Assembly (NCBI RefSeq): GCF_964355755.1
Contig: NC_092678.1
Location: forward strand, 13,638,352 to 13,702,351
DNA length: 64,000 nt
DNA from: Antedon mediterranea
Taxonomy: Eukaryota; Animalia; Echinodermata
Reading direction: 5' to 3'
Shown: in pieces, positions 10,811-56,162 of the stretch
Layout: the number at the start of each line of letters is the position of its first letter
How positions within the stretch are numbered: the stretch's first letter is position 1
The notes under the pieces: generated by a model
Told to the model about the DNA's origin: nothing
What the model saw: the letters and a program-made list of their open reading frames with translations, nothing else
The model's database searches: none
Made by a program: the position numbers and the translations under genes

Positions 10811-10828
10811 GTATTGTTATGTCACTAA

Positions 10829-31898: not shown

Positions 31899-32067
31899 TG
31901 TGACGTTGTTAAACGTATATATTGCAATTATTAGTTGCAAGAAATAAAATGACAGACGACTATAATGAGATCAATGAGAGAGAGTGTAACTTTTATTCAA
32001 AGCATGCTGGGAACTCCTGACTGTGACGTCATACACACATATATTTGATATAGATAGATATGTGACA
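31899..32067 (-). repeat. 3' LTR (169 bp)
   Basis: No mismatch found by eye against 55994-56162. Confidence 0.97.
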
Positions 32068-32211: not shown

Positions 32212-33000
32212 TTAGTATTTGTCCATTATGAAGTCATCGAAACGTTTGGGTACACGTCTATTTCGCTTTGGTCTGGTGATTACTACCTCTTCCTTTTGAG
32301 GATCAGGTGTCTTCGGCGGAGTTTCGATAGGAGTTTCATCCACTTCTCCTTCAACATTAATATCTTCTTCATGTGATTGATTTAATTGTCGGCGATTGCG
32401 TCTGTACACTTGTCCGTTTTGCGTAGCGACCATATATGATCTCGGGGTAACATGTTCAGATAACACTTTCGCGGGGACCCATTCTCGGCCTTTGTTGAGA
32501 CGGACTATCTCGTTTCCTTTCAGTGATTGTAGCGTTCGCGTTCCACGATTGTAATATTCCGCCTGTTTGTCTTGTCTAACGATCAACGAATTATGTGCGT
32601 CTGGAATCAGTGTAGGCTTAAGTTGCTCGCGTGCGATAGGAATTCGTGTTCTAAGCCTTCTGTTCATCAGCAACTGTGCTGGAGATTTGCCGATACCTCC
32701 CAATGGCGCATCTCGATAAGCGAGTAAAGCTAAATGAAAGTCTCCGTGAAAGTCATCAGCGGCTTTTCTTAACAATTGCTTGACTGTCTGTATGCACCGT
32801 TCAGCTTGACCATTGCTTTTTGCATAGTTGGGGCTCGATGTGATTAGTTCTATCCCCCATGATTTAGCGAACTTTTTCATTTAAAAACTTGCGAAAGGCA
32901 TTTTGTCGCTTACAAATGTTGCTGGAATGCCATGTCTCGCGAAAATCGTTTTTAGCCTGCCGATTACTTCTTTGGCAGTTTTGTTGCGTAGCGTGACGAT
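32212..33000 (-). pseudogene. Gypsy integrase, distal part of catalytic core and C-terminus
   Basis: IVTLRNKTAKEVIGRLKTIFARHGIPATFVSDKMPFASF*MKKFAKSWG...SSPNYAKSNGQAER...YRRNRR; one in-frame TAA. Confidence 0.95.
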
Positions 33001-33403
33001 CCACAACAACCGATGGATTGTCTCGAATTCCATAAATTCTTCCCGCGTGATTCAGGTTATTTGTAGACGTGTGCATCGGAATGCTCTTGAACTTTCCCCA
33101 TAACAGTGTCTGATGAAATTGATAATTCAATGACGTTTTTGTTCGTACGTTGAAATTTCCTCTCGTCGTAATGTTTGTCGAGCCGGTGGATGCAAACGAC
33201 AAGGCGGTGGATCCTCGACATAACGGCGATTGAAATTCTACCATGTCGTCTTGTAATTTGGTTCCTCGCATGTGTATGGAATGTGTCTTTTCACGTTTGT
33301 CGTACGCGTATCGATGAGCAATGTTCTGCGACGACACCACGTTCACTAGGAAGAAATTGATGGCAGCTGTTTTACACGTAGATTCGACTTGGACGTGCAC
33401 CAT
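33001..33403 (-). pseudogene. Insert gene of unknown function truncated at the left junction
   Basis: ATG at 33403 overlaps the kinase 1 3' end; about 134 codons then run out of frame into integrase sequence. Confidence 0.6.
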
Positions 33404-35004
33404 GAGTTTTCTCGTATAGGCGTGTGTATCGATTTTATTTTGTTTCCTAACATCTCTTTGAAAACCCTATCGGTGACCGTTTGCTGCTTCACTCCAAGAG
33501 GAAGAATGATTGACGAATCCTTTTCAATCTCGACAACTACATGACCGTCTGTCGTTTGTCGATGCGTTGGAAACAATGACACCAAGAATCGAAGTTCTCT
33601 GTCGTTGTAAACTCTAAACTCTACCGACGACGACGATGACGATGATGACGAAGGTTTTCGATACAGATTCAATGCTGATCGAACAAACACGACCGCCAAC
33701 GTGCCGTCTGCGTTGTCAATCAACAGGTTCATATGATCAACTGTTATGTTTTCGCCACTTTCTTGAAACACCACATCTCCAACTAGCGTTTGAAAGTCTC
33801 TGTAAAACAAATGAACGACATTCTGTGCAACCATCTTCACCGATAACATGTCCATAGATTCGATGTTGGTGCGCTGTGATTGAACGTCGTTCTTCAACAC
33901 TAGAAAGGACTTTCTGTTCTCCGGTATTGGATTTAAATTGTCAACAAGCCGATCGATAAAACGTTCACCGAGAACACTTCGATATCGATCCAGTATAGGC
34001 AGTTCATCGGACGGCTGGCATTCCAGAGCCTTACATATGTTCATGTCAGAGTTTACGTACGTGTACCAGTAAGCCGTTTCGAATTTTGTCATACCACCTC
34101 TTATCTTCACAAATTGTCTGCAGAGGCCGACAAGAGTGTGTAATATCTTCGACTTTTGCCCAGTGTCTCCAAGTCTTTTCATGTCTGTGTATTGCACCTC
34201 GTCAAATTGTTGGCATTCGTTGTACATTGTGGCCGTCACCACGGTCATTGCGGCAGAAAACACGTCCGATTCACTATTCAGCAGTTTCACCACTCTGTCT
34301 GTCATCACGTGACTGATATCTCGATACCCTATGGACACTAGTCTGTCTACGCTGCGCACTCCTCCGAATCCAGTGTCAACGTCCATTGTGTAGATCGGCA
34401 TGTCCGATGGTATGTACGCGGAGGCTATCGATTCTTCGTGAACGCATCCAACACCTCCAAATAAGCCGACCTTTTTGCTCGATTCAAATTCGATCATTTT
34501 TCGACGATGTACTTCGGCCGAACCGAAATCAATAAACTTGAATCGACCCTGCCGTCTGTTGTACGTCACATTCCTGATGGTTATGTCGTTATGTGCGACT
34601 CCTATCTTGTCCAGAAAAGCAAGCCCCTCGCCAACATGTCGATAAAGTGTAAGCACGCACGGCAACATTTGCATTGTCATCCGTATTGTAAACAAGTCAA
34701 AACCTTCGTTTGTCATGCGCAGACATTGAGTCACTCCTGAATCGACGACTGCCTGACATATTTGCGGCGTGTACCGTTTCAATCTGTCAAAGTAGTTTGC
34801 GTAAGCTAAAATGAAAGTTTCCTTGTTGAATGTTAAACGTACTCGTGCATCGCTGCTATTCTGATTGCCACAATGTAATTTTTCAACTAAACCAGACTCT
34901 ATGGAATGGACAACGCCAAACGAACCTCGGCTGTTCACAGTCACCAACGGATCGATTGTATTATCCAATTTGCCAAACGATAAAATCTTCTTTTGACCGT
35001 GCAT
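33346..35004 (-). CDS. Atypical protein kinase 1 with C-terminal extra domain
   Basis: RGSFGVV loop, NKE helix-C glutamate, HNDITIRNV catalytic loop, IDFGSAE, SDVFS, LNPIPENR. First ATG at 35004. Intronless. Confidence 0.9.
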   Translation of the reverse strand: MHGQKKILSFGKLDNTIDPLVTVNSRGSFGVVHSIESGLVEKLHCGNQNSSDARVRLTFNKETFILAYANYFDRLKRYTPQICQAVVDSGVTQCLRMTNEGFDLFTIRMTMQMLPCVLTLYRHVGEGLAFLDKIGVAHNDITIRNVTYNRRQGRFKFIDFGSAEVHRRKMIEFESSKKVGLFGGVGCVHEESIASAYIPSDMPIYTMDVDTGFGGVRSVDRLVSIGYRDISHVMTDRVVKLLNSESDVFSAAMTVVTATMYNECQQFDEVQYTDMKRLGDTGQKSKILHTLVGLCRQFVKIRGGMTKFETAYWYTYVNSDMNICKALECQPSDELPILDRYRSVLGERFIDRLVDNLNPIPENRKSFLVLKNDVQSQRTNIESMDMLSVKMVAQNVVHLFYRDFQTLVGDVVFQESGENITVDHMNLLIDNADGTLAVVFVRSALNLYRKPSSSSSSSSSVEFRVYNDRELRFLVSLFPTHRQTTDGHVVVEIEKDSSIILPLGVKQQTVTDRVFKEMLGNKIKSIHTPIRENSWCTSKSNLRVKQLPSISS

Positions 35005-35030
35005 TGCCGTCGTGTGCGTCAATCGAATGA

Positions 35031-36272
35031 TTAAGAGAGAATGGCTTTCTGACGTTTATCTATTTTACCTCGACAAATCGGACACAAAAGCAAACTGTTT
35101 GAACACGACCAGCAGGCGACCAAATGCGAACATGGAATGAAAAGAACACAAACGTCAGCGTCCATGCATATCTTACATGTTTTTTTTTCGCGTAAATCGC
35201 GCACAACAGATTGCACATCTTCTTCTTCCTCCACTTCTTCCTCTTCTACCACTGTTGGTTTATCGTTCACTGGAATCGTGACAGCGTTCAGAAGCTCAAG
35301 GGTAGACGTAAAGTTTCCACCGGTTCTCTTCACGTGATCGTTTACAGTAGTCGATACATGTTGCATGTCAAAACCCATTTCTAAAACTTTCACAACGATT
35401 TCAGAGCGCATTGCAATATCAAACGGACTTTTTGACGAAATAAGAGCCGTCTCGATGAAAGGAAAACCATTTTCGATTCTCAACCAATTGCAGAACGGAA
35501 ACCACTTTGCATGCTCGATCCAAGGATTATCGTCTAATTGCCAGTCTTTCAGTCCACCGCCGCAATGGAAACACATTGCCTGGTCCCGATTGATTGCAAA
35601 GAATCCGGCCTCAGCTATTCCGTTCGGCGTATGATCGGTAGCCCATACTGTAGTAAACGTCATTTTTCGAACATTCAAAAGAGCGTACTGTGGATGCATT
35701 GCCCGTTGCCTATTGTTGGTGGTGGTGGTGGTGGTGGTGGGGGTCGCCACGGTGGCCGCGGTGGATAACATGAACTTGCACAACGGGAAATGTTTTCTAT
35801 GCTTTTCGTCGACATTCACTCCTCTTTTCCATCGCTCAAGTAAACCGTTGCAAGAGAAGCATTCGACTACGTCACAGCATGACCTGTAATAAAATCCAGA
35901 CTTTGCTAAAGTGCACGCCGATACGATGTGTCCAAATGGCCAGTTTTTAAAAGTCGACAATCTGACCATATGCGAGTTTGAGTCGACCAAATGTGTTTTA
36001 CTGCCGATTAAAGGACTACTGTTACCACATGACATCAGTTTGCAAAACGGGAAGTGTTTCTTGTGCTCTGTATCGGCATCTGCTCCGGCGTTCCATCTCG
36101 AAAGTTTACCGTGACAACGGTAACATTCTACCCGGTCTTCTTGCCCCGTATAAAAGAAGCCCGACATTGCTAACGATGTAGGCGATATCACGTGTCCCGC
36201 AATCCAAAACTCATACGTGGCCAATCGTCTTTCATAACATTCCATCGCGCCTGTATGCACTATTTTATTCAT
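35031..36272 (-). CDS. iap: Inhibitor of apoptosis protein, 3 BIR + UBA + RING
   Basis: Three CxxC-x16-H-x6-C BIR motifs with GFFY/GFYY/GFF, LEMGF UBA, C-terminal CKICMD...CSH...CWSC...CPICR RING. Intronless. Confidence 0.97.
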   Translation of the reverse strand: MNKIVHTGAMECYERRLATYEFWIAGHVISPTSLAMSGFFYTGQEDRVECYRCHGKLSRWNAGADADTEHKKHFPFCKLMSCGNSSPLIGSKTHLVDSNSHMVRLSTFKNWPFGHIVSACTLAKSGFYYRSCCDVVECFSCNGLLERWKRGVNVDEKHRKHFPLCKFMLSTAATVATPTTTTTTTNNRQRAMHPQYALLNVRKMTFTTVWATDHTPNGIAEAGFFAINRDQAMCFHCGGGLKDWQLDDNPWIEHAKWFPFCNWLRIENGFPFIETALISSKSPFDIAMRSEIVVKVLEMGFDMQHVSTTVNDHVKRTGGNFTSTLELLNAVTIPVNDKPTVVEEEEVEEEEDVQSVVRDLREKKTCKICMDADVCVLFIPCSHLVACWSCSNSLLLCPICRGKIDKRQKAILS

Positions 36273-36371
36273 TTCTGTCTGTGTGCGCGAGCGGGTGTGT
36301 GTGTGTGTGTGTGTGTGTGGCCCGAAGAGTATATATTATAGCAATTTGTAAATTCAGATTCACCACACACG
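36273..36371. promoter_or_regulatory. Putative bidirectional promoter between iap and the 120-aa gene
   Basis: 99-bp spacer between divergent ATGs with TATATATTATA (~36330) and a (GT)n tract. Confidence 0.45.
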
Positions 36372-36734
36372 ATGGAGGATTCGATCGCAAAAGAAATGAA
36401 CACTGTTGTGGAAAATCTGAAATCGATATATTTTAAACAATTCTCTGATATTTTGAATACGATGATTAGAAACGGATGCAACGGATGTATTCACGAGCAT
36501 CCTTCTCAGATCGAACATGATCTATGTTTGATGGCTCCGGATAGAGAGAATATAGAACGTTTCTTTGACAACATTGTTATCGATAAAGAGGTACTGTTCA
36601 TAGAATGGTGTCATCAAAATGCTGATTTTCTGGAAAGTTGCTCTAATGTCAACGCCTGGTTCGAAGTTCTATTGTCGGAAATAAAAGATAGCAACAATTT
36701 AATCGATCAAATATACCGTTATAGATTAATTTAA
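36372..36734 (+). CDS. 120-aa protein with a CxxC-x3-HPSQ-x2-H-x2-C putative zinc motif
   Basis: Clean ATG-to-stop ORF downstream of a TATA-like element; motif CNGCIHEHPSQIEHDLC. Confidence 0.75.
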   Translation: MEDSIAKEMNTVVENLKSIYFKQFSDILNTMIRNGCNGCIHEHPSQIEHDLCLMAPDRENIERFFDNIVIDKEVLFIEWCHQNADFLESCSNVNAWFEVLLSEIKDSNNLIDQIYRYRLI

Positions 36735-36816
36735 TTTCTCTTGCGCCGGTATTTTCTTCGGTAGATTTAATATGAATTTTTACTCGACATACAACTTGTA
36801 ATATAGAAACAACTGA

Positions 36817-38279
36817 ATGTATTCTCCTTCATTCATAAGCAAGTCAAACACGAGTGTAGGTGCAGAATTTTTTCATCCAATGATCTGGTGAAAACGACCG
36901 CAGAGAAGGTTATGCCTAAGTCAGATGATTTGTTACAGGACGAAAACGCTTCGTTGAAGAAAAGTGTAAAATGTATACACCTTCTAGAACAGTTGTTGAA
37001 AGACCGTGATAAATCGTTGAACCACTTAGAGAAGACGGTAAAAAACTATAAATTATGTATTGAACATCTACAATGGCGCTTACACAAACACAACTTGGAC
37101 TCATCAGTTGATTTGAAAGAACATGAAATATTCGAGCCTGGTCACGATAAACAGATTTTAATAAGCTTGTTGAATGACGCTATACGATATAAAAGATTGC
37201 TTGACGAGAAGTTTAGCTCCGAAGAGGTAAGACGAAACTAAGTGTGAGAATATTTGTCATGAATTCGTTAAAATTATCATAGTGGTGTGAGTGTGTGATT
37301 TATTATTATTATTTTTTAATGTTCAGGTTGCCGAAGCAAAAGAAACCATTTCTGTTCTTGAGAAAGAAGTTAGTAAGCTGTGTGTACAGTTGAAACGGAA
37401 AGAGAACGAACTCATTGTTGTTTTAACTAAAATGAGATCCTCATACGACGAGAAAGATGTAGTAATTAGTAAGTTAAAATGTCAGCTACGAGATTATTTT
37501 ACACAGCGTAACAATGATGACGCTGTTCGTGACACGTTGAGCTCCGAAATAAGAACATTAAAATCAAATACTGAACAGTTTGTTGAAGAGAAAAAGAAGA
37601 TAACAAATGAACTAAAAGCATATGCGCAAAGAGAGAAGGTATGGGTACAGGAAAGAAATATGTGTTTTGCTCACGCTAGAATTTTACATTCAGAATCAAA
37701 GTTCGAAGATGAATGTAAAACGTTGCAAGAACAGGTTCGAAATTTAAGTCGTGAAAATACAGATTTATGTAGGCAATTAAAAGAGATAATTGTTATGAAC
37801 ACTCGCTGGCAAAAGTACTCTGAACAAAGAGAAGCACACGTTGTGCAGTTGAAACAACAATTGAAAGTATCTGAAAACAAAGTTTTCAAGAATCATTGCC
37901 TTATTTCTGAACTTGAGCGGATGGAAAAAGAGAAACGAAAAAAAGAAATCGATACTGCTGTTCTTAGTTTGGCAACAGATTTGGGAAAGACATGCGAATT
38001 GAATTGACTAAACACAATAACAGACTTGATGAAATAATTGGTCAATATCAAGAGACGTATGCGTCACTTCAACAATCTTACTTACCTTCTTCTAATACTC
38101 CCGATATTCTTGAATTAGTTTGTGATGATGATGATTAAGCAGCTGTAGAAGACGGTAATTTGGATGAATTATTACAATGTCCTCGTTTTCTGAAAGAGTT
38201 TAATATCATAGAACATGTTCAGTTAGTTGATCATTTAGATACATGTGATGTTGATGAATACAATAATTCTATCTTATAA
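36817..38279 (+). pseudogene. TNIP2/ABIN-2 (CEP55-related)-like coiled-coil gene with one intron, disrupted
   Basis: Phase-0 intron 37227-37326 (GTAAGA...TTCAG) joins the ORFs at 36888 and 37291. EABR-like MNTRWQKYSEQREAHVVQLKQQL; C-terminal LLQCPRFLKEF...LVDHLDTC finger. Frameshifts near 36870 and 37985; stop at 38136-38138. Start position inferred. Confidence 0.75.
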
Positions 38280-38446
38280 AATCTGTGCTGTTTTTGTTTT
38301 TGTTTTTTTGTTTCTTGCTAACAATCATTAATCAATAATAAAAGAAATTAACAGAATCTATAGTACGATCTATTCAATAACAATAAAGTGCATTTGGTAA
38401 TCTAGACGGGTATATATGCTTTTAATATAAATGATGGCGTGTTTTT

Positions 38447-39420
38447 CTCTAACACGATGTTCTCAATAAAGGAATAATAAATTGATAATAAAGTGTGTAT
38501 TTTGTAAACTAAACAGTATACAGAATTAAAAGTGTATTCGAAGTTATACTAAACGTAGAAGACGGCGTGTTTGTTCTCGATAAAGGGATAATGAATTAAA
38601 CGGCGTATAGTACTAATATTGTAGTCCTGATAACGAAGAAAATAAGTATTGCGCCCTCTATTGACAGATAATATGACTATTATTATTATATCGTGACAGA
38701 CAATATACTGTTTTTTTTAAACGGGTATAATATTCTTTTATTATAGAAGACGGCGTGATGTTCTGTAACGCGATGTTGTCGATAAAGGGATAATGAATTG
38801 ATAAAGGGATAATGAATTGATAATATTGAGTGAGAAGTATAAGGAAAGATCTAGAAGGTTATGAACATATTTTGTATAACGGGATGTATGTTCTCTCTTG
38901 TGTGTGTAAACTGAATGCTTAAACATTGATGCACACTGTCATTGAGGTCGAAGTAATCAAAGGCTGTTTTCTAATTGTTGATAATCTATTGAATTCGAAA
39001 GTAATCTATTGAATTCGGAAGTGATTTGTTGAAATCGGGTCATATCTTAATTGCCTTGAAAGAAATATAAAGCAAGTTACATATTTTTGGAAAGCTTAGA
39101 GAGTATAAACGTGTACTGCCCTTGGTGAAGAAAGTCTTGAAGATGAGTTTTTCATAAATTTTTAATGTCCCAATGTATTATGTACATCGAACGAATACCC
39201 ATTGAAAAGTTAAACAATCAAATGCTTTGACTTCTTACCGAAGTAAAAAAAAGATTTTAATTGATTTACTCATCATACAACATGCGACGAATGCATGACA
39301 TGTTATGCCTCTTCAGTTCTCTTTTTGTTGTAAACTGAATGTTTAAATATTGACGCGCGCTGTCATTGGCGTCGATGTAAAGCTTTTATTTTTCTAAAAC
39401 ATTATCGACCGAACGCTATG
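38447..39420. repeat. Diverged, rearranged copy of the insert's internal repeat
   Basis: 38447-38960 matches ~44710-45250; 38959-39095 matches ~44470-44610; another partial copy near 39325-39380. Confidence 0.8.
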
Positions 39421-39981
39421 CGTACTATCACATGTTGAATGCTTTAACAATAAATGGGCACTGTCCTTGAGAGGGAGGTCTTGAATATGAGTTTTTCATA
39501 ACACAAAGTTTATTCGAGTTTATAATAACGGACTTTCTATTTAGAAACAAATGAGAGAAGATTTGTTAATTGCGTAATACTTTTATTGATTTTTACTTTA
39601 CCTATATAAAATACAATGTAAACAAAACTAATGCCCATGATTCAGTGACAACAAAGTATTGCACCCTATATCTATAATTTATAAAATCCAATTCAATCAA
39701 TTCACGTTTTATTTCAGAACAAAGTCCATATCATAACACACAACAATATTCAATAAATTAATGTAAGTAAGTAAAAAAAAATATATAAAACAAGTCGCAC
39801 ATAAAAAATGCCGTCGGAAAACCGTCGGTTTTAAATTATTAGTGAAAAAACATTTTAATGGCTATACTGTTACGTAAAAAGTATACATGAAATTATGTAT
39901 ACAGAAGTTCAATCCATTTTCTGTGCAATTACTACTACTACTACTACTACTACTAATTTATTTTAAAAAAAATAAAAAAAA

Positions 39982-41622
39982 TCATCTACATGGTCGTTTC
40001 GCAGATGAAACTTCTTCTTCATCATCGGCCACCACCACCGTATTGTATTCGGATCTGAATTTTTCGACGCTTACTATGAGCGGTACGTCGTCGTTGACTT
40101 TCACATACATTCGGCGTATTCCATCGTGTAATTTTAATTTAGCGTTGGTGCCGAATGAATTCGACAAATGTTTAATGTCCTCGTCGCTGAACACGCAGAA
40201 TTCTACTGTAGTTGCAATATATTGACTCAGTCTGAGAGCCGACATGAGAAACGACATGATCAGTTTCCGATCGTTTGACATGATGTGCATATGTTCCACC
40301 ACCACAACGTTTTGATTCGGGCTTTCGTTGCCAAATTTGATGTCTCCAATCGAAATGTCATGTTCGTGTACTAGATACACCAATCTATCTTCAACGCGTT
40401 TCAACGAAAACTGTTTACCGCCAAACAATACAGTTGAGTCGTGTTGTTTTGAAGCCGCCTTTTCTAGTTTCGATACACTTCGACGTTCCGGTACAGGGTT
40501 CAAACATTCTTTTAAAGCGTCCGTAAACTCGACTCCCAAGAACGGACTGAATCTATCGATGTATGAATTGTATTTCTTGCTGCTGGAACAATGCGACAGT
40601 GAAAATGCGTCGGTCAGTGATCTATCCGGATTCACGTGCGTGTACCAAAACTGGAGATCACGTTCGTTCATCGGACCACGTAGTTCTACCGAATGTCTAC
40701 ACACCTTAATCAAATTGTTGTACGCAAATTTGTCCTTTTTTAAATCGCAATAGTCGCTTTGCGTCTCAAACTTATTCCGATTGTTGTCATCATAAAACAT
40801 TAAAGCCACACTCATCGAGGCGCTGTAAACGTCCGAATTTCGACGCAACATCTTCACTCGTCTGTCTGACATCACATGACTTATGTCCCTGAAAGGTATC
40901 CTTGTCAGTTTCTCCTCACTCCTGACGCACGAATATTTTGGTTCGGTGTCGGAAAAGCGTAGTCGACTTCCCGGTGGCAAGTACTTTGACGCCATGGAAC
41001 CGGTTCGAACGATACCCAAACACCGATGGCCATGTCTCTCTTTCACAGAAACGCCAAACGTGCTTGCACCGTGCTTTGTAAACTCGGCAGAACCAAAGTC
41101 TATTATACGAAATCGATTATCTAATCGACTATACGCCACGTTCTCGATTGTTATGTCGCTGTGAACCACACCTGCGTTTTCGAGAAACGTCAACGCTTTG
41201 CAAACATGTAACGAAAGCGTTTTCACGCAAGGCAGAAGCTTGTAACAATAGCGTAGCCTGTACAGATTACATCCTTCGTTTCTCATCGTGATTGATATTG
41301 CGATGTTACGCCGATAAGAAACTTCGAGCAGACGAGGCGTACACATTCGAGCCGCGTCCGTTTGTTTTAAGTGTGCAAGAACCAAAACTTCCTTGTTTCC
41401 CGACAAGTTCACGTCTTCATGCTCGAGCGTAGACGTGCGGCTGGCCGTGAAATCATACAATGTCTTTATCACAACGTGCACGTTTTCTTTAGCTGTCTTC
41501 ACTTCGCCATGTTTCTCACTTTCTTGAATTCGAATAGCGCCGTACTTGCCGTTTACAGCCGGTAAACTTTCATACTTTCTCGTTGTTATTTGCGTCTTGT
41601 ACAGGGGTAGAAATTCAGCCAT
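39982..41622 (-). CDS. Atypical protein kinase 2, paralogue of kinase 1
   Basis: NGKYGAI, VVIK, NKE, HSDITIENV, IDFGSAE, FRDISHVMSDRRVK, SDVYS, LNPVPERR. First ATG at 41622. Intronless. Confidence 0.9.
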   Translation of the reverse strand: MAEFLPLYKTQITTRKYESLPAVNGKYGAIRIQESEKHGEVKTAKENVHVVIKTLYDFTASRTSTLEHEDVNLSGNKEVLVLAHLKQTDAARMCTPRLLEVSYRRNIAISITMRNEGCNLYRLRYCYKLLPCVKTLSLHVCKALTFLENAGVVHSDITIENVAYSRLDNRFRIIDFGSAEFTKHGASTFGVSVKERHGHRCLGIVRTGSMASKYLPPGSRLRFSDTEPKYSCVRSEEKLTRIPFRDISHVMSDRRVKMLRRNSDVYSASMSVALMFYDDNNRNKFETQSDYCDLKKDKFAYNNLIKVCRHSVELRGPMNERDLQFWYTHVNPDRSLTDAFSLSHCSSSKKYNSYIDRFSPFLGVEFTDALKECLNPVPERRSVSKLEKAASKQHDSTVLFGGKQFSLKRVEDRLVYLVHEHDISIGDIKFGNESPNQNVVVVEHMHIMSNDRKLIMSFLMSALRLSQYIATTVEFCVFSDEDIKHLSNSFGTNAKLKLHDGIRRMYVKVNDDVPLIVSVEKFRSEYNTVVVADDEEEVSSAKRPCR

Positions 41623-41634
41623 AGCAGCAGCACA

Positions 41635-42133
41635 ATGTCGGCGATTTACAGATGGCAAGACACAAATTCAAAGAAATTGTACGCGGCACTGATCGTTGAA
41701 CGTAAATGGATAATACTGGAACGTTTCTCCCCTAGTGATGAATGGAGTCCACCGTTGCCTACACTCGACGTTACACCGGACACATTGGAAATCGAAATGA
41801 TAACAAAGCCAAGCTGGAACGGTGTTGTGTTCAGGGACTATAATCCACATCCGTTGCGTGAGCGAGGAGTCGCAATGAGACCGACGCTAAATTTAGCTTC
41901 GAATCTGTCGATGGCGCAGATATCCCAATGGCCAACGCATGTCGGTAAGTTCACCGATACCCATATGACGTACGAGAAGAGAACTGATGTTCTTGTGATT
42001 AACGGCTGTAGGGTAAACAGATCATATCCGACAATTTCGAGAATCATCAATCATCATCTTCACCACCACCACCCCAATGTGAAAACTAAAAACAAAAGTC
42101 GACTCATCACGCATATTACACCACCACCACCAT

Positions 42134-42166
<33 letters not shown>

Positions 42167-44106
42167 AAGACTTTATGCACACGCCTCGAATGTTGAAGCT
42201 GTTCACGTCGATGACAAGCGATCCGAACGTAGCTCTATTGGCACTCTCATTTGAGCTGTTCACCGCGTCTACCAAAAATGTGCACGCGCTACGACGGCTG
42301 CTCTCGAACATATGCGAGAGAACATCGGCATCAGATCACATACTGACGCAATCGAAACAGTTTTGGTTTCATATGCGATCGCATGGAATCAATCAACACA
42401 ACTGGCATTCAAAATCTCCATCCAATGTCGTTGCAAAGGCGAGAGAGTATCATCGTCCGCCAGTACAAGACGAATTGATTCTGGCCAGCGTTCTGTTGTG
42501 GGAAATGGCCACGTTTGCGCGTGGTAGACGTACCCCGTTCACTTTTGAAGCAGTAAAGATGCAGTGTTATTTGAACGAAGCGCGTGTTGCTGCTGCTGCT
42601 GCTGTTGAAGAAGAAGAAATCCTACGCAGAGCGTTGAATGAAGTCGCCAAGAAAAGAGAACGCACGACGTTCGCGTTAGAAGCTGAGAAGATGGGTCTAG
42701 AGAACTACGCAGTTATGAACGGTGTCTACATCGATCTTGAAACAGTTTTGTTCAATCTTCCAAAATTACGCGCTACTCTCTACAAAGAAATCGGAAAAAG
42801 ATTGTTACTGTTTGAGGATTTTGAAACGACGATTCAATGTCTGTGCCTGGACGTGCTTCGACAAGCTTCTTCCTTCTTGAGCAGTTTCGAACTCATCAAA
42901 TCCATCGCTCCTTTGTATCCAAAAAAACGCAGACGAATCACACAGAAACGCATCGAAGGAATCGACAGGTTTCTTACGAATTTTGAGCGACGCGTTGACG
43001 GCAAACGAAGAAAACGTTTTGTCAAGTACCTGCAAACTTGGATTCCGAAATTTCCTGTTCCGGAACACGACGGTTACGCCTCCTTACAACAAAGATGCGA
43101 TCAAAACGAGGCGCTTCGACTGTTTGCAATTGCCTATCCGGCCATAACATTCTCGTTCGCCGTTCCCGAAGTAAAAAACGACGCCCAGCTTATGTTTGCT
43201 CTCGCCAACTGCACATCACACCTGGGTAGACTGATGTGGTTTGACTTTGATCCGGTGACGGTACGCATCAGATCATCCGTGATCGGTCTCACGCCCCTAC
43301 AAGAACAACGCCTCGAAATGGCTTCTCTTCAACCAGCGTATGACGCGTACGAAGAGTCTATCCGCGTCACTCAGCACATTAGACACAGTATACCTTTTAT
43401 GCACGTATCGATATTCGAAGGCGTTCAAGCCAACGTGGTTTGCCGACAGAACGAACGCTACGTAACTCGTCTCTAGGCCTATCCTCTTATCTTTGCCTCG
43501 TATGACGTTATAGACGCGAATGAAGGTAATCGGCAACCTCCACAACCCAAACACGGAGAATGTACATCCTATTACCAGAACGTTGTCACTGTCGACAATG
43601 CTGGAGTGGTTAAATGGAATCATACATCGCCATGTTTTGCGCGATTCATTCAATGTGCAAACGTTTTGCTTTTATGTCATAAGAAATCAGACTTTGTTCG
43701 TGGCCCTATTCATTCCCCTGAAGATAGCGTTCACGTACTTTGTCAACTTGCACTCGATCACAAGGACGACGATAACGATGACGGAGAACTTGCGTCACCG
43801 AGATCGTTTCCTTGTCATCTACCTCGACCGTTTGATGACAATATAGTATTGATAAACGATGACAGTGGTGGTGATGGCGAGGAGAAAATACGGTTCTGTA
43901 TCGTCAGCCCGGACGATATGAGGCCTTTTTTCCCAAAAGATTTCATCGAAAGTATCATTGCCGATCCCCATCGGACGCCCGTTATACAGAAAAAGATGGT
44001 GTTTTACTTGAGGGCAGATCTTACCAATGAATACACAGAAAATCACTTTCTCTCCGACAAGGACAGAAGTGTTCTTGTTGCCGGTTCAATCATAAGACGT
44101 CGGTGA
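41635..44106 (+). pseudogene. ~823-codon orphan gene with one internal TAG
   Basis: The 613-aa and 166-aa ORFs share a frame; the only stop between them is TAG 43474-43476. No recognisable domain. Confidence 0.8.
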
Positions 44107-44444
44107 ATGAATACACACGCACACAATTCAAAACTCGGTGTTCAATTTGGTTATTATTAAGCATTGGCAATTTGGAACAGGACAGTGTAGAAATTGAAAC
44201 ATCATCATCCATTTAAGTTTAGTACTTTTTTTACGTATGGTGTTTGTTAGCACGCGATTAATAGCGCCTACAATTTTCGGTGAAGATATATACAGTACCT
44301 ACAGACAATTCCTATTGTCAAACCTGCTAATGATAAATAATTTTCATAAAGCCCGGCGAGCAGTCTTGTCCAAAAAAAAAAAGAGAGCAAAAGGGTTTAA
44401 TTTGTGATTGTGAGATTAATATTAAAATAATAATAAAAAAAATA

Positions 44445-45744
44445 AACCAATGTAATGGTCCACTGAACTTCAAAGGCTGCTTTCTAATTGTTGATAATCT
44501 ATTGAATTCGGAAGTAATCTATTGAATTCGGAGGTGATTTGTTGAAATCGGATCATATCTAATTGCCTTGAAAGAAATATAAAGCAAGTTACATATTTTT
44601 TTGGAAAGTTTAAAGAATGGAGATTAATATAATAATAATAATAATAAAATTTTAATTTCAACACAAGGCTCCTTTTGTGGTGACACGAGCCATATTTTCT
44701 TTTATTATCCCTAACACAATGTTCTCGAAAAAAAAAAATTGACCATAACGTGTCACTTTGTAAACTAAACGGTATACATTCTTTTAGTTATAGTTGTTCA
44801 CTAACACGATTTATACTAAACGGTATATTAATAGAAGACAAAGTATTTGTTATCGATGAAGGGATAATGAAATTGATATTATTATAATTTAAACGGCGAG
44901 TTTAGTATTTTGTAGTCCTGATAACGAATACAATAAGTAGTTCGCCCTCTATTGACAAATAATATACCTGCGTTATACGCCGCGTGACAGACAATAATTA
45001 TACTAGGCCTACTGTGTTTCTTAATGGGTATATTTTAGTTTTATTATAGAAGTTCTGTAACGCGATGTTGTCGATAAAGGGATAATGAATTGATAAAGGG
45101 ATAATGAATTGATGATTGAGTGAGAAGTATAAGGAATGATCTAGAAGGTTATGAACATAATATTTTGTATAAGGGGATGTATGTTCTGTCTTGTGTGTAA
45201 ACTGAATGCTTAAACATTGACGCACACTGCCATTGAGGTCGAAGTAATCATTGCATACGGATGCGTGTTACTGCTCTATCAAGATCAGGACTGCATTATT
45301 CACACACATAAAACACTGAGAGTAATAAAGAGAATCTATGCTTGATTGTTTTACACTCGAAAAATGTATTAGTATTTTGTAATAAAATAAAGGTAATTCA
45401 AATTGTCACATGATGCATTAATAAATTAATTAATGTTCATAAACGTCCAAATACTAGTTTTCTAGCATTTGTATTAAAATAATGCCTGCTATCTGTCTAT
45501 ATACTGTAGCAGATATATTTTCATGTTTCGTTCTGCTCTGCATACGGAATGTGTGTGTGTGTGTGTGTGTGTGTGTCTTCTACTGACTGACTGACTGACG
45601 TTCACGATTTAACGTTACCGCTCCAAGAATTCAATACTACAATACATTGTTTGTTGTAATATTGATATTGCTATACCTTTCAATGTTCATAAATGTCAAT
45701 ATGCTGGTGTCTCCTATTCCATCTATCTTTGGTACAGTTCTTGA
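44445..45744. repeat. ~1.3-kb direct repeat, copy 1
   Basis: Highly similar to 46087-47413; includes the last ~110 nt of the AlkB-like ORF. Confidence 0.95.
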
Positions 45745-46086
45745 GGATGAGGATACTAAAGACTGGATGGGGATAGACAAAGGTTCTGACGGCGAGGATA
45801 GTTATTGAAAACGAAGAAGAATGTGTAAGAATTTGTATAGGCCTAATCATGATCTAGAGTAGAAGTGAGTTATGTTAACAGATTGTGTGTGCTCAAAATA
45901 ATCCATTAATCAAAATAATTATGCATTTTTAATTGTTGATTTTATATATTAAGATGATAATAAAAATGAAAGAAATTAAAGTGTATTCTTTATTCGTATT
46001 CATTGTTTAAGTGTGTAAAATTTCATGTAGATCCAGTAATAATAACTAATGGTATCCAATGCGAATGTGTTGTGGTTATTGAATAG

Positions 46087-47413
46087 AACCAATGTAATGG
46101 TCCACTGAACTTCAAAGGCTGCTTTCTAATTGTTGATAATCTATTGAATTCGGAAGTAATCTATTGAATTCGGAGGTGATTTGTTGAAATCGGATCATAT
46201 CTAATTGCCTTGAAAGAAATATAAAGCAAGTTACATATTTTTTTGGAAAGTTTAAAGAATGGAGATTAATATAATAATAATAATAATAATAAAATTTTAA
46301 TTTCAACACAAGGCTCCTTTTGTGGTGACACTAGCCATATTTTCTTTTATTATCCCTAACACGATGTTCTCTAAAAAAAAAAATTGACCATAACGTGTCA
46401 CTTTGTAAACTAAACGGTATACATTCTTTTAGTTATAGTTGTTCACTAACACGATTTATTCGATAATGAACCCTAATTAAAAAAAACAAACAAAAGTGTA
46501 TTCGAAGTTATACTAAACGGTATATTAATAGAAGACAAAGTATTTGTTATCGATGAAGGGATAATGAAATTGATATTATTATAATTTAAACGGCGTGTTT
46601 AGTATTTTGTAGTCCTGATAACGAATACAATAAGTAGTTCGCCCTCTATTGACAAATAATATACCTGCGTTATATGCCGCGTGACAGACAATAATTATAG
46701 GCCTACTGTGTTTCTAAATGGGTATATTTTAGTTTTATTATAGAAGCTCTGTAACGCGATGTTGTCGATAAAGAGATAATGAATTGATAAAAGGATAATG
46801 AATTGATGATTGAGTGAGAAGTATAAGGAATGATCTAGAAGGTTATGAACATAATATTGTATAAGGCGATGTATGTTCTCTCTTGTGTGTAAACTGAATG
46901 CTTAAACATTGACGCACACTGTCATTGAGGTCGAAGTAATCATTGGATACGGATGCGTGTTACTGCTATATCAGGATCAGGACTGCATTATTCAAACACA
47001 TAAAACACTGAGAGTAATAAAGAGAATCTATGCTTGATTGTTTTACACTCGAAAAATTTATTAGTATTTTGTAATAAAATAAAGGTAATTCAAATTGTTA
47101 CATGATGCATTAATAAATTAATTAATGTTCATAAACGTCCAAATACTAGTTTCCTAGAATTTGTATTAAAATAATGTCTGCTATCTGTCTATGTAGCAGA
47201 TATATGTTCATGTTTCGTTCTGCTCTGCATACGGGATGTGTGTGTGTGTCTTCTACTGACTGGCTGACGTTCACGATTTAACGTTACCGCTCCAAGAATT
47301 CAATACTACAATACATTGTTTGTTGTAATATTGATGTTGCTATACCTTTCAATGTTCATAAATGTCAATATGCTGGTGCTTCCTATTCCATCTATCTTTG
47401 GTACAGTTCTTGA
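46087..47413. repeat. ~1.3-kb direct repeat, copy 2
   Basis: Highly similar to 44445-45744, with an extra ~50 bp near 46460-46510. Confidence 0.95.
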
Positions 47414-48022
47414 CCATTCATTGATTGTTTCAGAATTTATTACCAGCATCGAACCGTGCTCCATTTTTATGTTCACAGGTTTAATGTTTTTGTTGGTGCG
47501 GTGTTCGAATCTACAGATTCTAGTAGGTCCCAGAGACATAATGCATACAGGACTTATTTTGCTCCTTTGTACATCATTAAGATAGCATTCCGCTGAATCC
47601 TCCGCTCTTGTCAAAGTTACCATATTGTAAAAATGACCAGTCGCAATGTGTATCCATTCACGCATTTCGAGTAGAAACTTTGGCCAGTAACACAGAGGAC
47701 TTCTTCTCGCTGTGTCGTCGATGTTTGTGTGAACTCCTATTTGGAATGACAACTCCAAATCACCGTACGGTGCACATCTAATGTGATCTACTTCAGTGAT
47801 CACATCACGTAACTTATATAGAGAATCGAATAAATGTGTTTTCCTACATTGTTTTAAAATAGTGTCTGCTATCAGTCTATGTAGCAGATGTACACGAACG
47901 CATTTCATGTTATCTTCCGGTCTGCATACGGTGTGTGAATGAAAGCCGAAATAAAACTCATCTTCTGACTGGCTGACGTTCATGATTACTTTATTGCTAC
48001 AAGAATTCACTACAACTTCCAA
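47306..48022 (-). CDS. AlkB (ALKBH2/3)-like fold protein lacking catalytic residues
   Basis: WPKFLLEMREWI..ATGHFYN..SPVCIMSLGPTR..RFEH..MEHGSMLVI..EWSRTVPK..ILTF follows the ALKBH2/3 pattern. Start uncertain (TTG at 48022, first ATG at 47983). Confidence 0.8.
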   Translation of the reverse strand: MEVVVNSCSNKVIMNVSQSEDEFYFGFHSHTVCRPEDNMKCVRVHLLHRLIADTILKQCRKTHLFDSLYKLRDVITEVDHIRCAPYGDLELSFQIGVHTNIDDTARRSPLCYWPKFLLEMREWIHIATGHFYNMVTLTRAEDSAECYLNDVQRSKISPVCIMSLGPTRICRFEHRTNKNIKPVNIKMEHGSMLVINSETINEWSRTVPKIDGIGSTSILTFMNIERYSNINITTNNVL

Positions 48023-48505
48023 TTAAAGTTTGAAACTAAAACTCCATACTGGTCGATTTTTATACTTTGCGATGAAGGTTAACTACACGCGTTGTCAACA
48101 AACAACGAAACCGATGAATGATTGTCGATTATACTGATGTGTATGTGTGGTGCGCGCTTTAAAATTCGTATTGAATATATCGTGCCTCCTCTTCCTCCTA
48201 CCCGGCTTAATTTGCGTATGGTTTTCGAATGATGATCATGAACACACAAACGGGTGTAATTCCATCGTTAGTTACTTTAGTGTTACAATAAAACCGTCTC
48301 GGCAACATGATGGAAATAAGCGTCACTGTCGGTAAATGTATACACCGGTCCCAAAGAGTCAGGGTCAATTACTTTTTTTTAAGAAATATGTTTAATGTGT
48401 ATTATTATTATTATAGTTTAATATAAGCGTATTTTATAAATTTAATCTCCATTGATTCTATCATCATATTTTAAAATCAAAATGCTATGTTTTAAATTCT
48501 ATTTG

Positions 48506-48551
<46 letters not shown>

Positions 48552-49085
48552 TCCCTCTCCTTCTCTCCTTATTAATTTAGATTCGACTATGTAGAAACGG
48601 AATTTAATTTCCAAATTAAAACACTGCATTGTAACAATATTATAATCGGTCTGCTTTTCTTTTATCGATGATGACAATAGAAATAAGGGTAGGGCGTGTG
48701 TATGTATCACCGCCGGTCAGTGTACACACCAGGTCACAAAGCTTTAAAGAAATATTTTTAATTGTTATCCCGAATATGTGTGATAGAGTAATTCGTTTCG
48801 ATATATAATCATTTTGGTATACTAACAATTTGAACAAGCTTCCTCTACGCGCCCAGTCGTAAATCCAATCCTAGATTTTATATTTACCGATATTGCGACC
48901 CTATATAGTTTTTGATAAATTACTAATACTGTTATGGTATCGATAGATTGTAAGCCAGCCGAATGGTTAGTTCTTGAGTCTCGTAATTTAACGCTGTAGC
49001 CTTAGGCTAGGGTTCGAGAATTGATTTGATACATATATATATATATATTTTTTTTAAATATTTGTTTTACTCACCATCTTCTTTA

Positions 49086-50392
49086 TTGACAAATAATCTA
49101 CAACTACTAAGTGGTCATTTCCTCCAAAGTTGAAAATGTCTGCCCCAACTTTATAAAAGGGTATTTCAGGTATTTCGTGAGGTATCATTGGTTCACGTTG
49201 ATTTTTCCTTTTGTACTTCGCACATATCGTACATCTTGATACCATGTCATGAATAGCATTGGTGATACCGGGCCATTACAACAACTCTCTGGCTCTGGCC
49301 TTGGATTTCTCTATTCCTAAATGAACATCATGAATGCGGTTAAGCATGAATTCTCGTTTGCTTTCTGGTACTATCAATTTCTGCCCAATAAACATTAGTC
49401 CCTCGTGTTCATAAATTTCGTCACGCATCGGCCAAAATTGTCTTATCTTTACGCTGACTGACTGACGTCGCTCAGGCCAGCCAATATAGCACTGTTTCGA
49501 TAGTTCCTTTAGTGTCTCGTCCTCGTTAGTCGCTTGTTGTATTTCCGTTATTCTAGCTTTACTCATACTCAACAGCTCATGTACGGCATGTATACGATAT
49601 TGTAGAATTTCAGGATCATTTGTGACAGTTTCCATCGGAACCGCTCTGCTCAGTGCGTCACGTCTGCGATATACATTTCACGACCTGGAACATATGTGAC
49701 ATTTATATCATATTTTAATAGTCGTAGCATCATCTGCTGTAGTCTGGGACTCGCCTTGTGAATTGGTTTCTTTGTAATTGACTCAAGAGGTTTGTGATCA
49801 GACTGGATCGTAACTGAACGTCCGTAGACATAGTTGTTAAACCTTTCAAGTGAAAAACAAATAGCTAGCATTTCTTTTTCTATCTGAGAATAGTTCATTT
49901 CGGCTGACGTTAGTGATCGCGAACTATAGCGTATCGGGTGACCATCTTGCATTAAAACACTTCCTAGTCCAAAAGATGATGCGTCACATTGGATTACTAC
50001 TTCTTTATTCGGATCAAAGTACTTAAGTACTGGCTCTGAGCTTAACAAACTCTGCAAATGTTTTAGCGATTGGTCGTGGCGTTCATCCCAAGACCGCGCT
50101 ACTTCCTTCTTTAATAACTCTCTCATAGGAGCGCTGATGGTAGACATATTCGGAATAAATGGCGACAGATAGTTGATCATTCCCATTAAACGTCTCAGGT
50201 CAGACTTACAAGAAGGTGTAGGCATATCATAAATTGCTTTTACTTTAGAATTATCAGGCTTAACACCATCTCTACTAATTATGTGACCTAAGTATGTCAA
50301 CTCATGTTCTTTAAGCTTAATCTTATTTCTATTAAATTTTACATTTTCATCTTTAGCACGCTCCATGACTTTGGCTATCACATTATCATGAT
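49086..50392 (-). pseudogene. Gypsy pol: RT C-terminus, RNase H, linker, integrase HHCC and first catalytic Asp
   Basis: YLGH, QCDASSFGLG, NYSQIEKEMLA, SDHKPL, HDVHLG..CTIC, VGADIF, VVVDYLS; with frameshifts and stops. Confidence 0.95.
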
Positions 50393-53290
50393 TAGTAGAG
50401 CAGTTAATGACATGAGCTGTGCATTTTATTACCAAAGCATGAAACTTGGCACAAAGTTTCTTTGATGTATATAGATTCAAAATATCTGGGGGTGCCAAGT
50501 GTCCAACGTCCGGTATGGCGGCCATCTTGATTTCAAAATGGCCACCATAAAAACAAAAAAATGTTCATATCTTGGCAACTATACACATTAGAGAATTAAT
50601 TTTTGTCTTAAATTGTTCACAAACTATATATTTCTCTTTGCTCTAATGAAAAGTTTCGTCCAAAAATGACCGGAAATGACGTTTCTTACAGTTTGACCTT
50701 TGACCTCGTATTTGTATATCTCTGTAACTACTGGTCATTTTCAATCGATTTTGGTGTCATTTTGTTCAGAATAAATACATTTATATTTGTAGTAATGAAA
50801 CATTTTCACATAAAATGACCGAAAATACAATTTATGACCTTTGACATTAATTTATTGATTTTTAATTATGTGAATATACTGTAGGTGGTTTTTGTTGGTC
50901 TAAAGTGCACCTAATTTTGAACTTACCCCTGATAAGCGTAATTATATTAAATAATTAATGGACTTAAATTGTATATAGTACATAAAATTGGTAAACATTG
51001 TGCTGGCACCTTCTGATTCGCTAAAAGTTTTAATAGTTTGACAGAGGAAATAACATACATGTTATTGAATACCGTAAAACCTCGAAAAGGTGATAGTATG
51101 AGCTTCTTTTCGAGAAAGACTGTATTTGATTGTCAAATGAATAGTATGATGATTGTGTTTATATAAATATATTATTAATGACCTTACAAAGAACACTGTC
51201 TATTTCAACAATTAAGCCACAGTTATTCTACAATTTATTGTTTTCCAAGTGGTAGGCCTATTTTGATTGCATCTTATTTTTGTATGCTTCCTCGTTTAAT
51301 ATGGTCCTAACCCTCCTTCTTTGTCTGTGGATAGTCTTATGCACCCTTCTTTGTCTGTGGATGGTTTTACACCCCTTTCTTTGTCTGTGGACGGTCTTAT
51401 ACCCCTTTCTTTGTCTTTGGATGGTCTTATACCCCCTTCTGTGTCTGTTGATGGTATTACACCTCTTTCTTTGTCTGTTGATGGTATTAAACCCCTTTCT
51501 TTGTGTGTGGATGGTCTTACACCCCTTCTTTGTCTGTGGGTGGCCTTACATCCCCTTCTTTGTCTGTGGATGGTCCGATGGTCCTATACCTCCATTTTTG
51601 TCTGTGGATGGTCTTACACCCCTTCTTTGTCTGTAAGTGGTCCTATACCCCTTTCTTTGTCAGTGGTGGATGGTCTTACACCCCCTTCTTTGTCTGTGGA
51701 CGGTTCTACACCCCCTTCTTTGTCTGTGGATGGTCTTACACCTCTTTCTTTTTCTGTGGACGGTCTTATACCCCCTTCTATGCCTGTGGGTGATCTTACA
51801 CCGCTTTCTTTGTCCATTGATGGTATTACACCCCTTTTTTGTATGTGGATGGTCTTATACACCCCTTTCTTTGTGTATGGATGGTCTTGCACTCCTTTAA
51901 TTTGTCTGTGGATGGTCTTACACCCCCTTCTTTGTCTGTGGATGGTCTTATACCCCCTTCTTTTGTCTGTGGATGGTCTTATATCCCCTTCTTTGTCTGT
52001 GGATGGTCTTCTCCCTTTCTTTGTCTGTGGATGGTCCTACACCCCTTATTTGTCTGTGGATGGTCTTATACCCTCTTCTTTGTCTGTAAGTGGTCCTATA
52101 CCCCTTTCTTTTTCAGTGGATGGTCTTGCACCCCCTTCTTTGTCTGTGGACGGTCCTACGCCCCCTTCTTTGTCTGTGGATGGTCATATACCCCTTTTTT
52201 TGTCAGTGGATGGTCTTACATCCCCTTCTTTGTCTGTGGATGGTATTAAACCCCTTTCTTTGTATGTGGATGGTCTTACAACCCCTTCTTTGTCTGTGGA
52301 TGGTCTTACACCCCCTTCTTTGTCTGGACCCACTACTTTGATTGATGAAATTAGACATTGTTTCTTGTATGATTAGGAAACCAAGACCTTTAAAGTGAAA
52401 GTTCACAGGTGGATGCCTAGGTCTTGTACAGAACAGTATATTGTAGGTCCATGTCACTAATTTGAGGATTACTTGAATAATTATATTTAGATGTCTTTTA
52501 CGAATTGATTTAGTTCGGATTTTGCTAAAAAATCAATGACTAGAGAAAATCAAGGAAAAGGATTCAGATGAAAGGTTTACAGCAAAGGCCTATTACCATA
52601 AAAATGGAGTAAATTTTTTTAGATGCAACGAAAAAACGATTGACACATCACAGTTTAGCAAACATGTCGGCATAGATGAGCTCAGTGATCTGTCATACTT
52701 TATGCCTATCCTATCACATCAAAAGTTAAAAATTCAGAATAATAATTCCGTGTCATTTATTTCGGTAAAAAAATTAGGTGCATTTATACCAATTAAACCA
52801 CATACAGTATGTTCACATAATTATATATGTCAAAGGTTATAAATTGTATTTCCAGTAATTTTATGTGAAAATGTTTCATTACTACAAATATAAATGTCTC
52901 TATTCTGAACAAAATGACACCAAAATCGATTGAAAATTATCAGTAGTTACTGAGATATACAGATAAGAGGTCAAAGGTCAAACTGGAAGAAACGTCATTT
53001 CCGGTCATTTTTGGACGAAACTTTTCATTAGAGCAAATAGAAATATGTGGTTTGTGAACAATTTAACACCAGAATCAAGTCTCTACTGTTTATAGTTGCC
53101 AAGATATGAACACTTTTTGTTTTTATGGTGGCCATTTTGAAATCAAGATGGCCGCCATACCGGACGTTGGACACTTGGCACCCCCAGATATTTTGAATCT
53201 ATATACATCAAAGAAACTTTGTGGAAAGTTTCATGCTTTGGTAATAAAGTGCACAACTTGGCTATTTTTATGGCGTTAACTGCTCTACTA
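50393..53290. mobile_element. Academ-like non-autonomous element inserted in the Gypsy RT
   Basis: TAGTAGAGCAGTTAA...TTAACTGCTCTACTA, ~500-bp inverted arms, 3-bp TSD GAT (50390-50392, 53291-53293). Removal restores DDEKHHDNVIAKV in frame. Confidence 0.93.
51300..52330. repeat. ~30-bp minisatellite, over 30 copies
   Basis: Unit CCCCCTTCTTTGTCTGTGGATGGTCTTACA. Confidence 0.97.
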
Positions 53291-55496: not shown

Positions 55497-55950
55497 TTAA
55501 GTTTCATTGTTGCGTCTGAGATCCCGAAAAATAATTTATCTCTTAAAATTGCGTTTACGTCCTGAAATTTGCAGTCGTCGGCCATTGTTCTCAAATCGTT
55601 CATGTATTCATCTAAACCTTGCCCTTCTCTGGTCGTTGATACGACCAAAATTTGGCTCGCATGGCCATGACTGGATCTCTCTTTTTACAGTAGTTCTCAA
55701 ACTTGGTTAATACATTGTCATAATTATCTTTTGACTCACCCTCAACATATGTAAAATTGTTGAAAATTTCAAGCCCTCGTTTTTCGAGCACCGTGAGCAG
55801 GATCGCTATTTTCGTTTTATCGCCCTTGCCGTTTGAATCGGTGGCTGTCATGAATAAATCGAAGCGCTGCTTCCATCGTTTCCACTGCGTGTAAATGCTT
55901 GGCCCATCAAAATCAAAACTTTCAGGGGTCTTAAACCTGAATGATTCCAT
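55497..55950 (-). pseudogene. Gypsy gag N-terminal part
   Basis: MESFRFKTPESFDF..WKRWKQRF..LTKFENYC, then a frameshift to EGQGLDEYMNDLRTMADDCKF..LRDKLFFGI. Confidence 0.9.
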
Positions 55951-55993: not shown

Positions 55994-56162
55994 TGTGACG
56001 TTGTTAAACGTATATATTGCAATTATTAGTTGCAAGAAATAAAATGACAGACGACTATAATGAGATCAATGAGAGAGAGTGTAACTTTTATTCAAAGCAT
56101 GCTGGGAACTCCTGACTGTGACGTCATACACACATATATTTGATATAGATAGATATGTGACA
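55994..56162 (-). repeat. 5' LTR (169 bp)
   Basis: Matches 31899-32067. Confidence 0.97.

Follow-up and report, generated by a model that had tools for sequence, protein, structure and literature searches.

A fragment of a longer, multicopy virus-like element lies within a Gypsy retrotransposon of the feather star Antedon mediterranea

Several endogenous elements related to large DNA viruses have been described in marine invertebrates and fish. The lancelet elements BelcheriHV-1 and BelcheriHV-2 are malacoherpesvirus-like and have a GC content of about 45% (44.9% for BelcheriHV-2), while Malacoherpesviridae-like genomes span about 130–210 kb and are 70–85% coding (PMC12373286). The core genes reported for nimaviruses include the wsv423 kinase, and an integrase gene is also described (PMC10871703). 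A starfish genome contains a Herpesvirales-related region, which the preprint's main text presents as a divergent herpes-like entry into echinoderms (bioRxiv 10.1101/2025.04.19.649669). Within the literature searched, outside which most subscription papers lie, this starfish region was the sole report of an echinoderm large DNA virus, and neither a crinoid large DNA virus nor a viral kinase–GNAT fusion was found. Here we describe an insert in a 64,000-nucleotide stretch of the A. mediterranea genome (assembly GCF_964355755.1, contig NC_092678.1, positions 13,638,352 to 13,702,351; hereafter the window), which carries two protein kinases, an inhibitor of apoptosis protein (IAP) and several orphan genes, and which interrupts a Gypsy retrotransposon. 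The insert represents part of a longer element, of which feather-star DNA contains several near-identical copies, and this multicopy parent, rather than its nesting in Gypsy, is the object of interest. The parent is probably an endogenous large double-stranded DNA virus or a virus–transposon hybrid of an undescribed lineage, and the piece in the window a repair patch in Gypsy.

Limits of the insert and copies of its parent

Contigs from runs X1, X8 and X9 (three studies) contain the same Gypsy uninterrupted, with position 32999 joined to 49092 via 18 other letters. The insert therefore occupies 33000–49091 (16,092 bp), which corrects the limits of 33001–49085 given in the original prediction, and 18 target bases were lost. 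The loose Gypsy end at 32999 is common to four runs. Nine runs from four studies contain the region wholly or partly; X1–X4 may represent the source sample, and X5 and X8 are labelled as two other organisms. No RNA data set is among the runs listed and X9 barely covers the genes, neither of which has a bearing on expression. Contigs were compared twice, once using 40 of 681 rows chosen by the search tool and once using all rows.

Contigs of X1 and X2 (study P1) and of X5 (study P2) align to the window from position 33000 exactly and extend upstream by another 195 to 414 letters, a continuation with the same loose end in both studies. Since these contigs continue past 33000, the left end of the insert is a break inside the parent. 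One contig of X8 departs from the window at 48091, with 28 letters unplaced. One X5 contig is without 36795–38004, i.e. most of a TNIP2-like gene, and gene content thus differs among copies. The X1 contigs differ from the window at 60 of 8,281 bases of the insert, and Gypsy differs from the majority contigs at 12 of 1,430. Depth in the X1 contigs is ∼1,000–1,300 over the genes, 1,800–2,450 over Gypsy and 5,000–11,000 over the AT-rich repeats and the right end, values that are not a copy number. At the protein level, the IAP belongs to a 90% cluster of six proteins, whose contigs measure 26.1, 36.2 and 39.0 Mb; five of the six are named A. mediterranea by their source, and two of them appear to be parts of one split copy. 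The three other full-length IAPs of the cluster are 98% identical to that of the window.

Selection was assessed by comparing the window with the main X1 or X5 contigs within kinase 1 and the IAP, leaving out rows outside both genes and two rows from a minor X1/X2 branch. Synonymous changes account for 21 of the 35 single-letter differences versus 27.5% expected (P = 6e-5), with 10 of 18 at positions at which neither set of contigs agrees with the window, 3 of 5 for X1 only and 8 of 12 for X5 only. As the differences are mostly synonymous, the copies diverged while the proteins were under selection, and purifying selection between copies fits an element that was active until recently. Because the element exists in multiple near-identical copies under selection, its remaining part should be accessible in the sequence that adjoins the annotated IAPs.

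Genes and composition of the fragment

The insert holds seven genes and one open frame truncated by its left end, together with non-coding segments, as follows.

33002..33403, minus strand: 134-codon open frame truncated at the left end, without a family match; it may or may not be a gene
33346..35004, minus strand: kinase 1, 552 amino acids, with Gly loop, HxDxxxxN and DFG; its C-terminal domain shares homology with the GNAT-like tail of kinase 2
35031..36272, minus strand: intronless IAP with three BIR domains (E 2e-47), a UBA-like domain and a RING domain (E 3.7e-12)
36372..36734, plus strand: ORF120, a small Cys/His orphan
36912..38279, plus strand: TNIP2/ABIN-2-like coiled-coil gene, broken
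38443..39380, no strand assigned: AT-rich non-coding repeat, copy 1, 75–94% like copies 2 and 3
39982..41622, minus strand: kinase 2, 546 amino acids, 35% identical to kinase 1
41635..44106, plus strand: ORF823, an orphan with an in-frame stop at codon 614
44441..47413, no strand assigned: copies 2 and 3 of the AT-rich repeat; they form a 1.3-kb direct duplication (92%), which also contains a piece of the AlkB-like 3' end
47306..47983, minus strand: ALKBH2/3-like (AlkB-like) gene, 225 amino acids (ALKBH2 E 6e-6; Pfam 2OG-FeII_Oxy_2 E 9e-4)
48020..49091, no strand assigned: non-coding right end with deeper contig cover than the genes and a (TC)n run; ends in CA

About eight densely packed genes of distinct composition had been predicted, and this description holds for two blocks of the insert. 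Blocks 33000–36340 and 39980–44110 have GC contents of 0.447 and 0.453, are intronless, and space their open reading frames (ORFs) by 26, 99 and 12 bp. The insert as a whole is 58% coding (9,325 of 16,092 bases), tight packing is confined to the two blocks, and the remaining GC of 0.30–0.38 is not distinct from that outside Gypsy (0.334 and 0.368); the TNIP2-like gene also has a likely intron, and ORF823 contains a stop. The observed/expected CpG ratio is 1.34 in the insert versus 0.84–0.88 outside, but since 2-kb windows of the left flank span 0.41–1.55, CpG alone is a weak marker. The GC content at third codon positions (GC3) is 0.46–0.48 in the kinases, the IAP and ORF823 versus 0.26–0.38 in two retroelement ORFs of the window.

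Both kinases carry the Gly loop, the helix-C Glu and the catalytic HxD...N and DFG motifs, and match Pfam Pkinase with E values of 4e-5 and 5e-7, just under the cut-off. Neither kinase 2 nor a profile of the two kinases found a relative among 5.8 billion proteins (lengths 300–966, shared 5-residue words required), and the kinases have no relatives in the viral contigs, metagenome contigs or prokaryote genomes searched. The fold of kinase 2 was modelled from two sequences with a mean pLDDT of 34, residues 405–516 alone reaching about 55–72. GNAT folds dominate the top matches to residues 402–513 in three structure searches, the best with a Z score of 8.9 and a root-mean-square deviation of 2.9 over 101 aligned residues. 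Inspection by eye of both kinases for R/Q-x-x-G-x-G/A between the fourth strand and the next helix did not reveal this Gly-rich acetyl-CoA binding motif A of GNAT acetyltransferases. Because the motif is not visible the tail is likely non-enzymatic, and the modelled fold would more likely be a docking module than an enzyme. A kinase with a GNAT-like tail, if true, would be a new protein architecture.

ORF823 has one real relative among 1.84 billion proteins, P0079 (809 amino acids, 51% identical), which is encoded on an ENA contig of 19 kb. The alignment covers both parts of ORF823, i.e. also beyond the single in-frame stop before which lies the 613-amino-acid orphan recognized earlier. A second match (a moth repeat protein, E 3e-4) was set aside as spurious. 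ORF823 has no relative in the viral or metagenome contigs, prokaryote genomes, phages or solved structures searched, and its fold search, from an unusable model (pLDDT 32), returned nothing under E 0.001. P0079, the AlkB-like gene and ORF120 likewise have no relatives in viral contigs, and PHROGs searches gave weak matches only. No family and no relative was found for ORF120; a scan for its Cys/His motif matched two unrelated phage-like genes and one gene of a radical-SAM-like cluster, and all three matches were judged to be due to chance. Such a motif may mark accessory genes of Polintons. Six of the seven tested ORFs are not in the protein collection, even as exact sequences, and were apparently passed over when host genes were annotated.

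The TNIP2-like gene has a likely GT..AG intron at ∼37231–37327, a frameshift near 38000 and a stop at 38136. Its name derives from an EABR match (E 1.8e-4, below the cut-off), and its C terminus presumably resembles a zinc finger, a pattern for which family searches gave no match. Alignment of the AlkB-like protein with ALKBH2 reveals that both iron-binding His are replaced and the Asp alone is kept (HxD...H), and the protein is predicted to be non-catalytic. The start of the AlkB-like gene (47840–48016) is 67–71% like the post-stop sequence in both duplicates (47150–47309 and 45469–45640), which suggests that the gene may once have been in an older tandem array. Within 48282–48732, 64 or 381 bases are missing from contigs of X1, X5 and X8, so the right-end segment is variable in length. 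A 20-base repeat unit had no match among viral contigs.

The ancestry of the IAP was examined in a tree of 31 IAPs, picked from 73 matches and the cluster and aligned from the last BIR to the RING over 287 columns. The four IAPs of the element form a long branch (1.17) that is sister to two IAPs of Anneissia with 97/95 support, the bootstrap being not fully settled. The IAP was likely taken long ago from a crinoid host, provided that the Anneissia genes belong to their host. Among the invertebrate IAPs that are annotated as immune genes of the host, some are probably part of such elements.

The region had been predicted to serve host manipulation, and the gene set fits such a role, the individual functions being those expected of the gene families. 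We propose that the parent propagates in the germ line as one unit, its persistence being served by the genes it carries. The IAP would block apoptosis, the TNIP2-like protein, where intact, would damp NF-kB signalling, and the two kinases may phosphorylate host targets and so rewire phosphorylation. The AlkB-like protein would be expected to bind nucleic acid without demethylating it.

The Gypsy host and its surroundings

The interrupted Gypsy spans 56162 down to 31899 on the minus strand, in transposon-rich animal DNA, and is composed of the following segments.

31899..32067, minus strand: Gypsy 3' long terminal repeat (LTR), 169 bp, TG...CA, 100% identical over 169 bp to 55994–56162
32212..32999, minus strand: downstream half of the Gypsy integrase (second Asp, Glu and C terminus), with one in-frame stop
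33000..49091, no strand assigned: inserted fragment of a longer multicopy virus-like element, which replaces 18 target bases
49092..50414, minus strand: end of the Gypsy reverse transcriptase (RT)/RNase H and upstream half of the integrase (zinc finger, first Asp)
50415..53258, no strand assigned: unrelated inverted-repeat element, nested in the Gypsy RT and holding a 30-bp tandem array
53268..54572, minus strand: Gypsy gag zinc knuckle, protease and start of the RT
55994..56162, minus strand: Gypsy 5' LTR, 169 bp, identical to the 3' LTR

The order of protease, RT, RNase H and integrase, based on Pfam-type domain matches, is that expected of Ty3/Gypsy, and identical 5 bases flank the outside of both LTRs as a matching 5-bp target duplication. 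The integrase is indeed split between its first and second Asp, as first reported. The upstream half (49093–49635, minus strand) matches Integrase_H2C2 (E 6.5e-13) and stops just past the first-Asp region, while the downstream half (32215–32997) matches positions 43–100 of rve (E 0.0034, below the cut-off) and contains the second Asp and the Glu, residues that we take to be those of the catalytic DDE triad.

The ends of the insert lack a target duplication of their own, and they neither form a terminal inverted repeat (6 of 20 end bases match) nor contain telomeric runs; an Rfam search gave no match and no rRNA at the site. Arrival as a repair patch is proposed on account of the loss of target bases and the lack of an end structure. 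The window copy would have arrived late and passively, patching a double-strand break in the resident Gypsy. The nesting is probably incidental, with Gypsy a mere landing site for the patched-in piece, and the earlier wording that the insert was captured by Gypsy was overstated for a fragment of a longer element that has other copies. The window copy is unable to move or replicate alone and is decaying. No contig among those listed bridges a junction, which is uninformative since contigs drop rare variants.

The element at 50415–53258 has arms of ∼430 bp that are 92–97% alike, around a 34-copy array of the 30-bp unit, and related arms are present at 7550–8780 and 10031–10519. Two inverted 540-bp copies, 97% alike, lie at 4008–4548 and 54968–55504, the second between the Gypsy 5' LTR and gag. 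As both the 50415–53258 element and the 540-bp repeat at 54968–55504 also sit there, the Gypsy locus is one that collects insertions. Elsewhere in the window, the element at 8292–10519 is bounded by 489-bp terminal inverted repeats (96%), within which 141-bp tandem units occur, and at 10848–14160 a 150-bp tandem array (12007–12813) is flanked by inverted repeats of 146 bp. A near-intact LINE occupies 15397–19560, with a PHD and a GDSL-esterase domain in ORF1 and an endonuclease–RT in ORF2, and remains of a second LINE are found at ∼20434–25768.

Origin of the element and comparison with known systems

The original prediction regarded the insert as a germline piece of an undescribed large DNA virus or giant virus-like element. 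Indirect support comes from the dispersal of near-identical copies, the purifying selection between them, the orphan genes and the affinity of the IAP to those of crinoids, and the layout, orphans and accessory genes point to a viral origin, which we favour with some confidence but well short of certainty. Several observations weigh against it. Herpesvirales have as hallmarks a terminase ATPase, a major capsid protein and a family B DNA polymerase. No capsid, terminase, packaging ATPase or DNA polymerase gene is present among the ORFs of the fragment, which is only part of the element, in agreement with the earlier remark that no core virion or replication gene was visible. None of its genes matches a known viral protein and no viral relative was found in any collection searched. 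The GC content of much of the insert is host-like, one gene (TNIP2-like) has a likely intron, both junctions between insert and Gypsy are known from the assembly alone, and the synonymous count was drawn partly from rows chosen by the tool (40 of 681 in one of the comparisons). The kinase model is poor and a Z score near 8 can reflect a common arrangement, as the search tool itself warns. The coding density of 58% is also below the 70–85% of whole lancelet and mollusc herpesviruses, and the best-hit table for BelcheriHV-1 and BelcheriHV-2 lists no protein kinase (PMC12373286).

The main rival is that the parent is a giant non-viral DNA transposon (Ginger-, Helitron- or Polinton-derived, or other) and the fragment its cargo. 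Such an origin would account for the dispersed copies, the gain and loss of genes between them (the TNIP2-like part missing in one X5 contig), the host-derived genes with a likely intron, the AT-rich repeats and the lack of a viral hallmark in 16 kb. The fragment is equally without a transposase, helicase or terminal repeat, however, and large intronless orphans, paired kinases and an IAP under selection would better suit a virus that controls its host cell, so that we regard cargo of a transposon as unlikely. Polintons (Mavericks) carry genes for a protein-primed polymerase, integrase, capsid and ATPase between terminal inverted repeats, over ∼15–25 kb. The insert as a unit of this type was rejected, as Pfam searches found none of these genes and there are no terminal repeats. 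It is improbable that the insert is instead a crinoid-specific, segmentally duplicated cluster of host immune genes, one duplicate of which fell into Gypsy. Such a cluster would fit the placement of the IAP among those of crinoids and its annotation as a host gene, the occurrence of TNIP2 and ALKBH2 as gene types in hosts, and purifying selection, to which host paralogues are also subject; the kinases and ORF823, however, are without relatives in the searched proteins of other crinoids or animals. Six of seven tested ORFs are missing from the protein collection and so apparently unannotated as host genes, and GC3 sets the kinases, IAP and ORF823 apart from the two retroelement ORFs. Syntenic host orthologues, which would have contradicted the original prediction, were not found for the kinases or the orphan in these protein searches, the genomes of relatives not having been searched directly.

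Two further explanations concern the site rather than the element, and both appear very improbable. The element could be real and its position in Gypsy a chimera of the assembly, given that both are repeats and the junctions are without independent confirmation; yet the breakpoints share their orientation and are separated by 18 bases of Gypsy sequence, which would require a misjoin twice at one spot, and the identical LTRs have the same 5-bp duplication on either side. Alternatively, Gypsy may have transduced the block during replication, or the CA at 49091 may be a true transposon end that drove a one-ended jump. The insert and Gypsy do differ to a similar extent from the majority contigs (60 of 8,281 and 12 of 1,430), and the CA end has an imperfect 13-bp inverted partner at 48093. 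Genes on both strands and an unspliced likely intron argue against an RNA step, the integrase is destroyed by the insert, and the filled Gypsy is not seen as a family in any contig. The inverted match between 48093 and the right end did not exceed chance (17 of 200 controls were as good) and was rejected, and target bases were lost rather than duplicated.

Taken together, a germ-line large DNA virus or virus–transposon hybrid could be described in a single, still tentative reading that falls somewhat short of an even chance: a recently active element of a new lineage that spreads under selection, swaps host-derived immune genes between its copies, and encodes a new pair of kinases fused to a GNAT-like domain, with a second, 51%-identical member in a public assembly.

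Among the described systems, endogenous nimaviruses are similar in being multicopy in the germ line, in carrying host-derived BIR genes and some host-like genes that have introns, and in having a protein kinase, which is a core gene there; they differ in their crustacean hosts, their 22–477 copies and their insertion at telomeric repeats or 28S rDNA (PMC10871703). At the insert site no nimaviral protein match turned up (no direct comparison was made), there are no telomeric runs and no rRNA, and the left end is not a natural one. The fish piggyBac–herpesvirus fusion Teratorn is also multicopy and has intact host-control genes that include CDK-like and pim-like kinases and an apoptosis inhibitor, although the inhibitor is Mcl1-like rather than an IAP and the kinases resemble host families (PMC5601938). 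Unlike Teratorn, the insert is without a transposase, terminal inverted repeat or target duplication, the true ends of its parent lying out of view.

The starfish region is defined by its DNA polymerase, and the main text of that preprint does not mention crinoids or Antedon (bioRxiv 10.1101/2025.04.19.649669). The lancelet elements, compared by gene lists only, differ from the insert in having recognizable herpesvirus genes, and their table lists neither a protein kinase nor a TNFAIP3-interacting match (PMC12373286). However, BelcheriHV-1 contains a 21-kb gene-sparse, repeat-rich block of unrecognized genes that resembles the insert, and BelcheriHV-2, also from a marine deuterostome, shares with it both an IAP and an ALKBH2-like gene, which is a likeness and not a defining trait (PMC12373286). 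By analogy with the lancelet and the starfish, a herpes-like parent is our first guess and would take up roughly half of the viral share.

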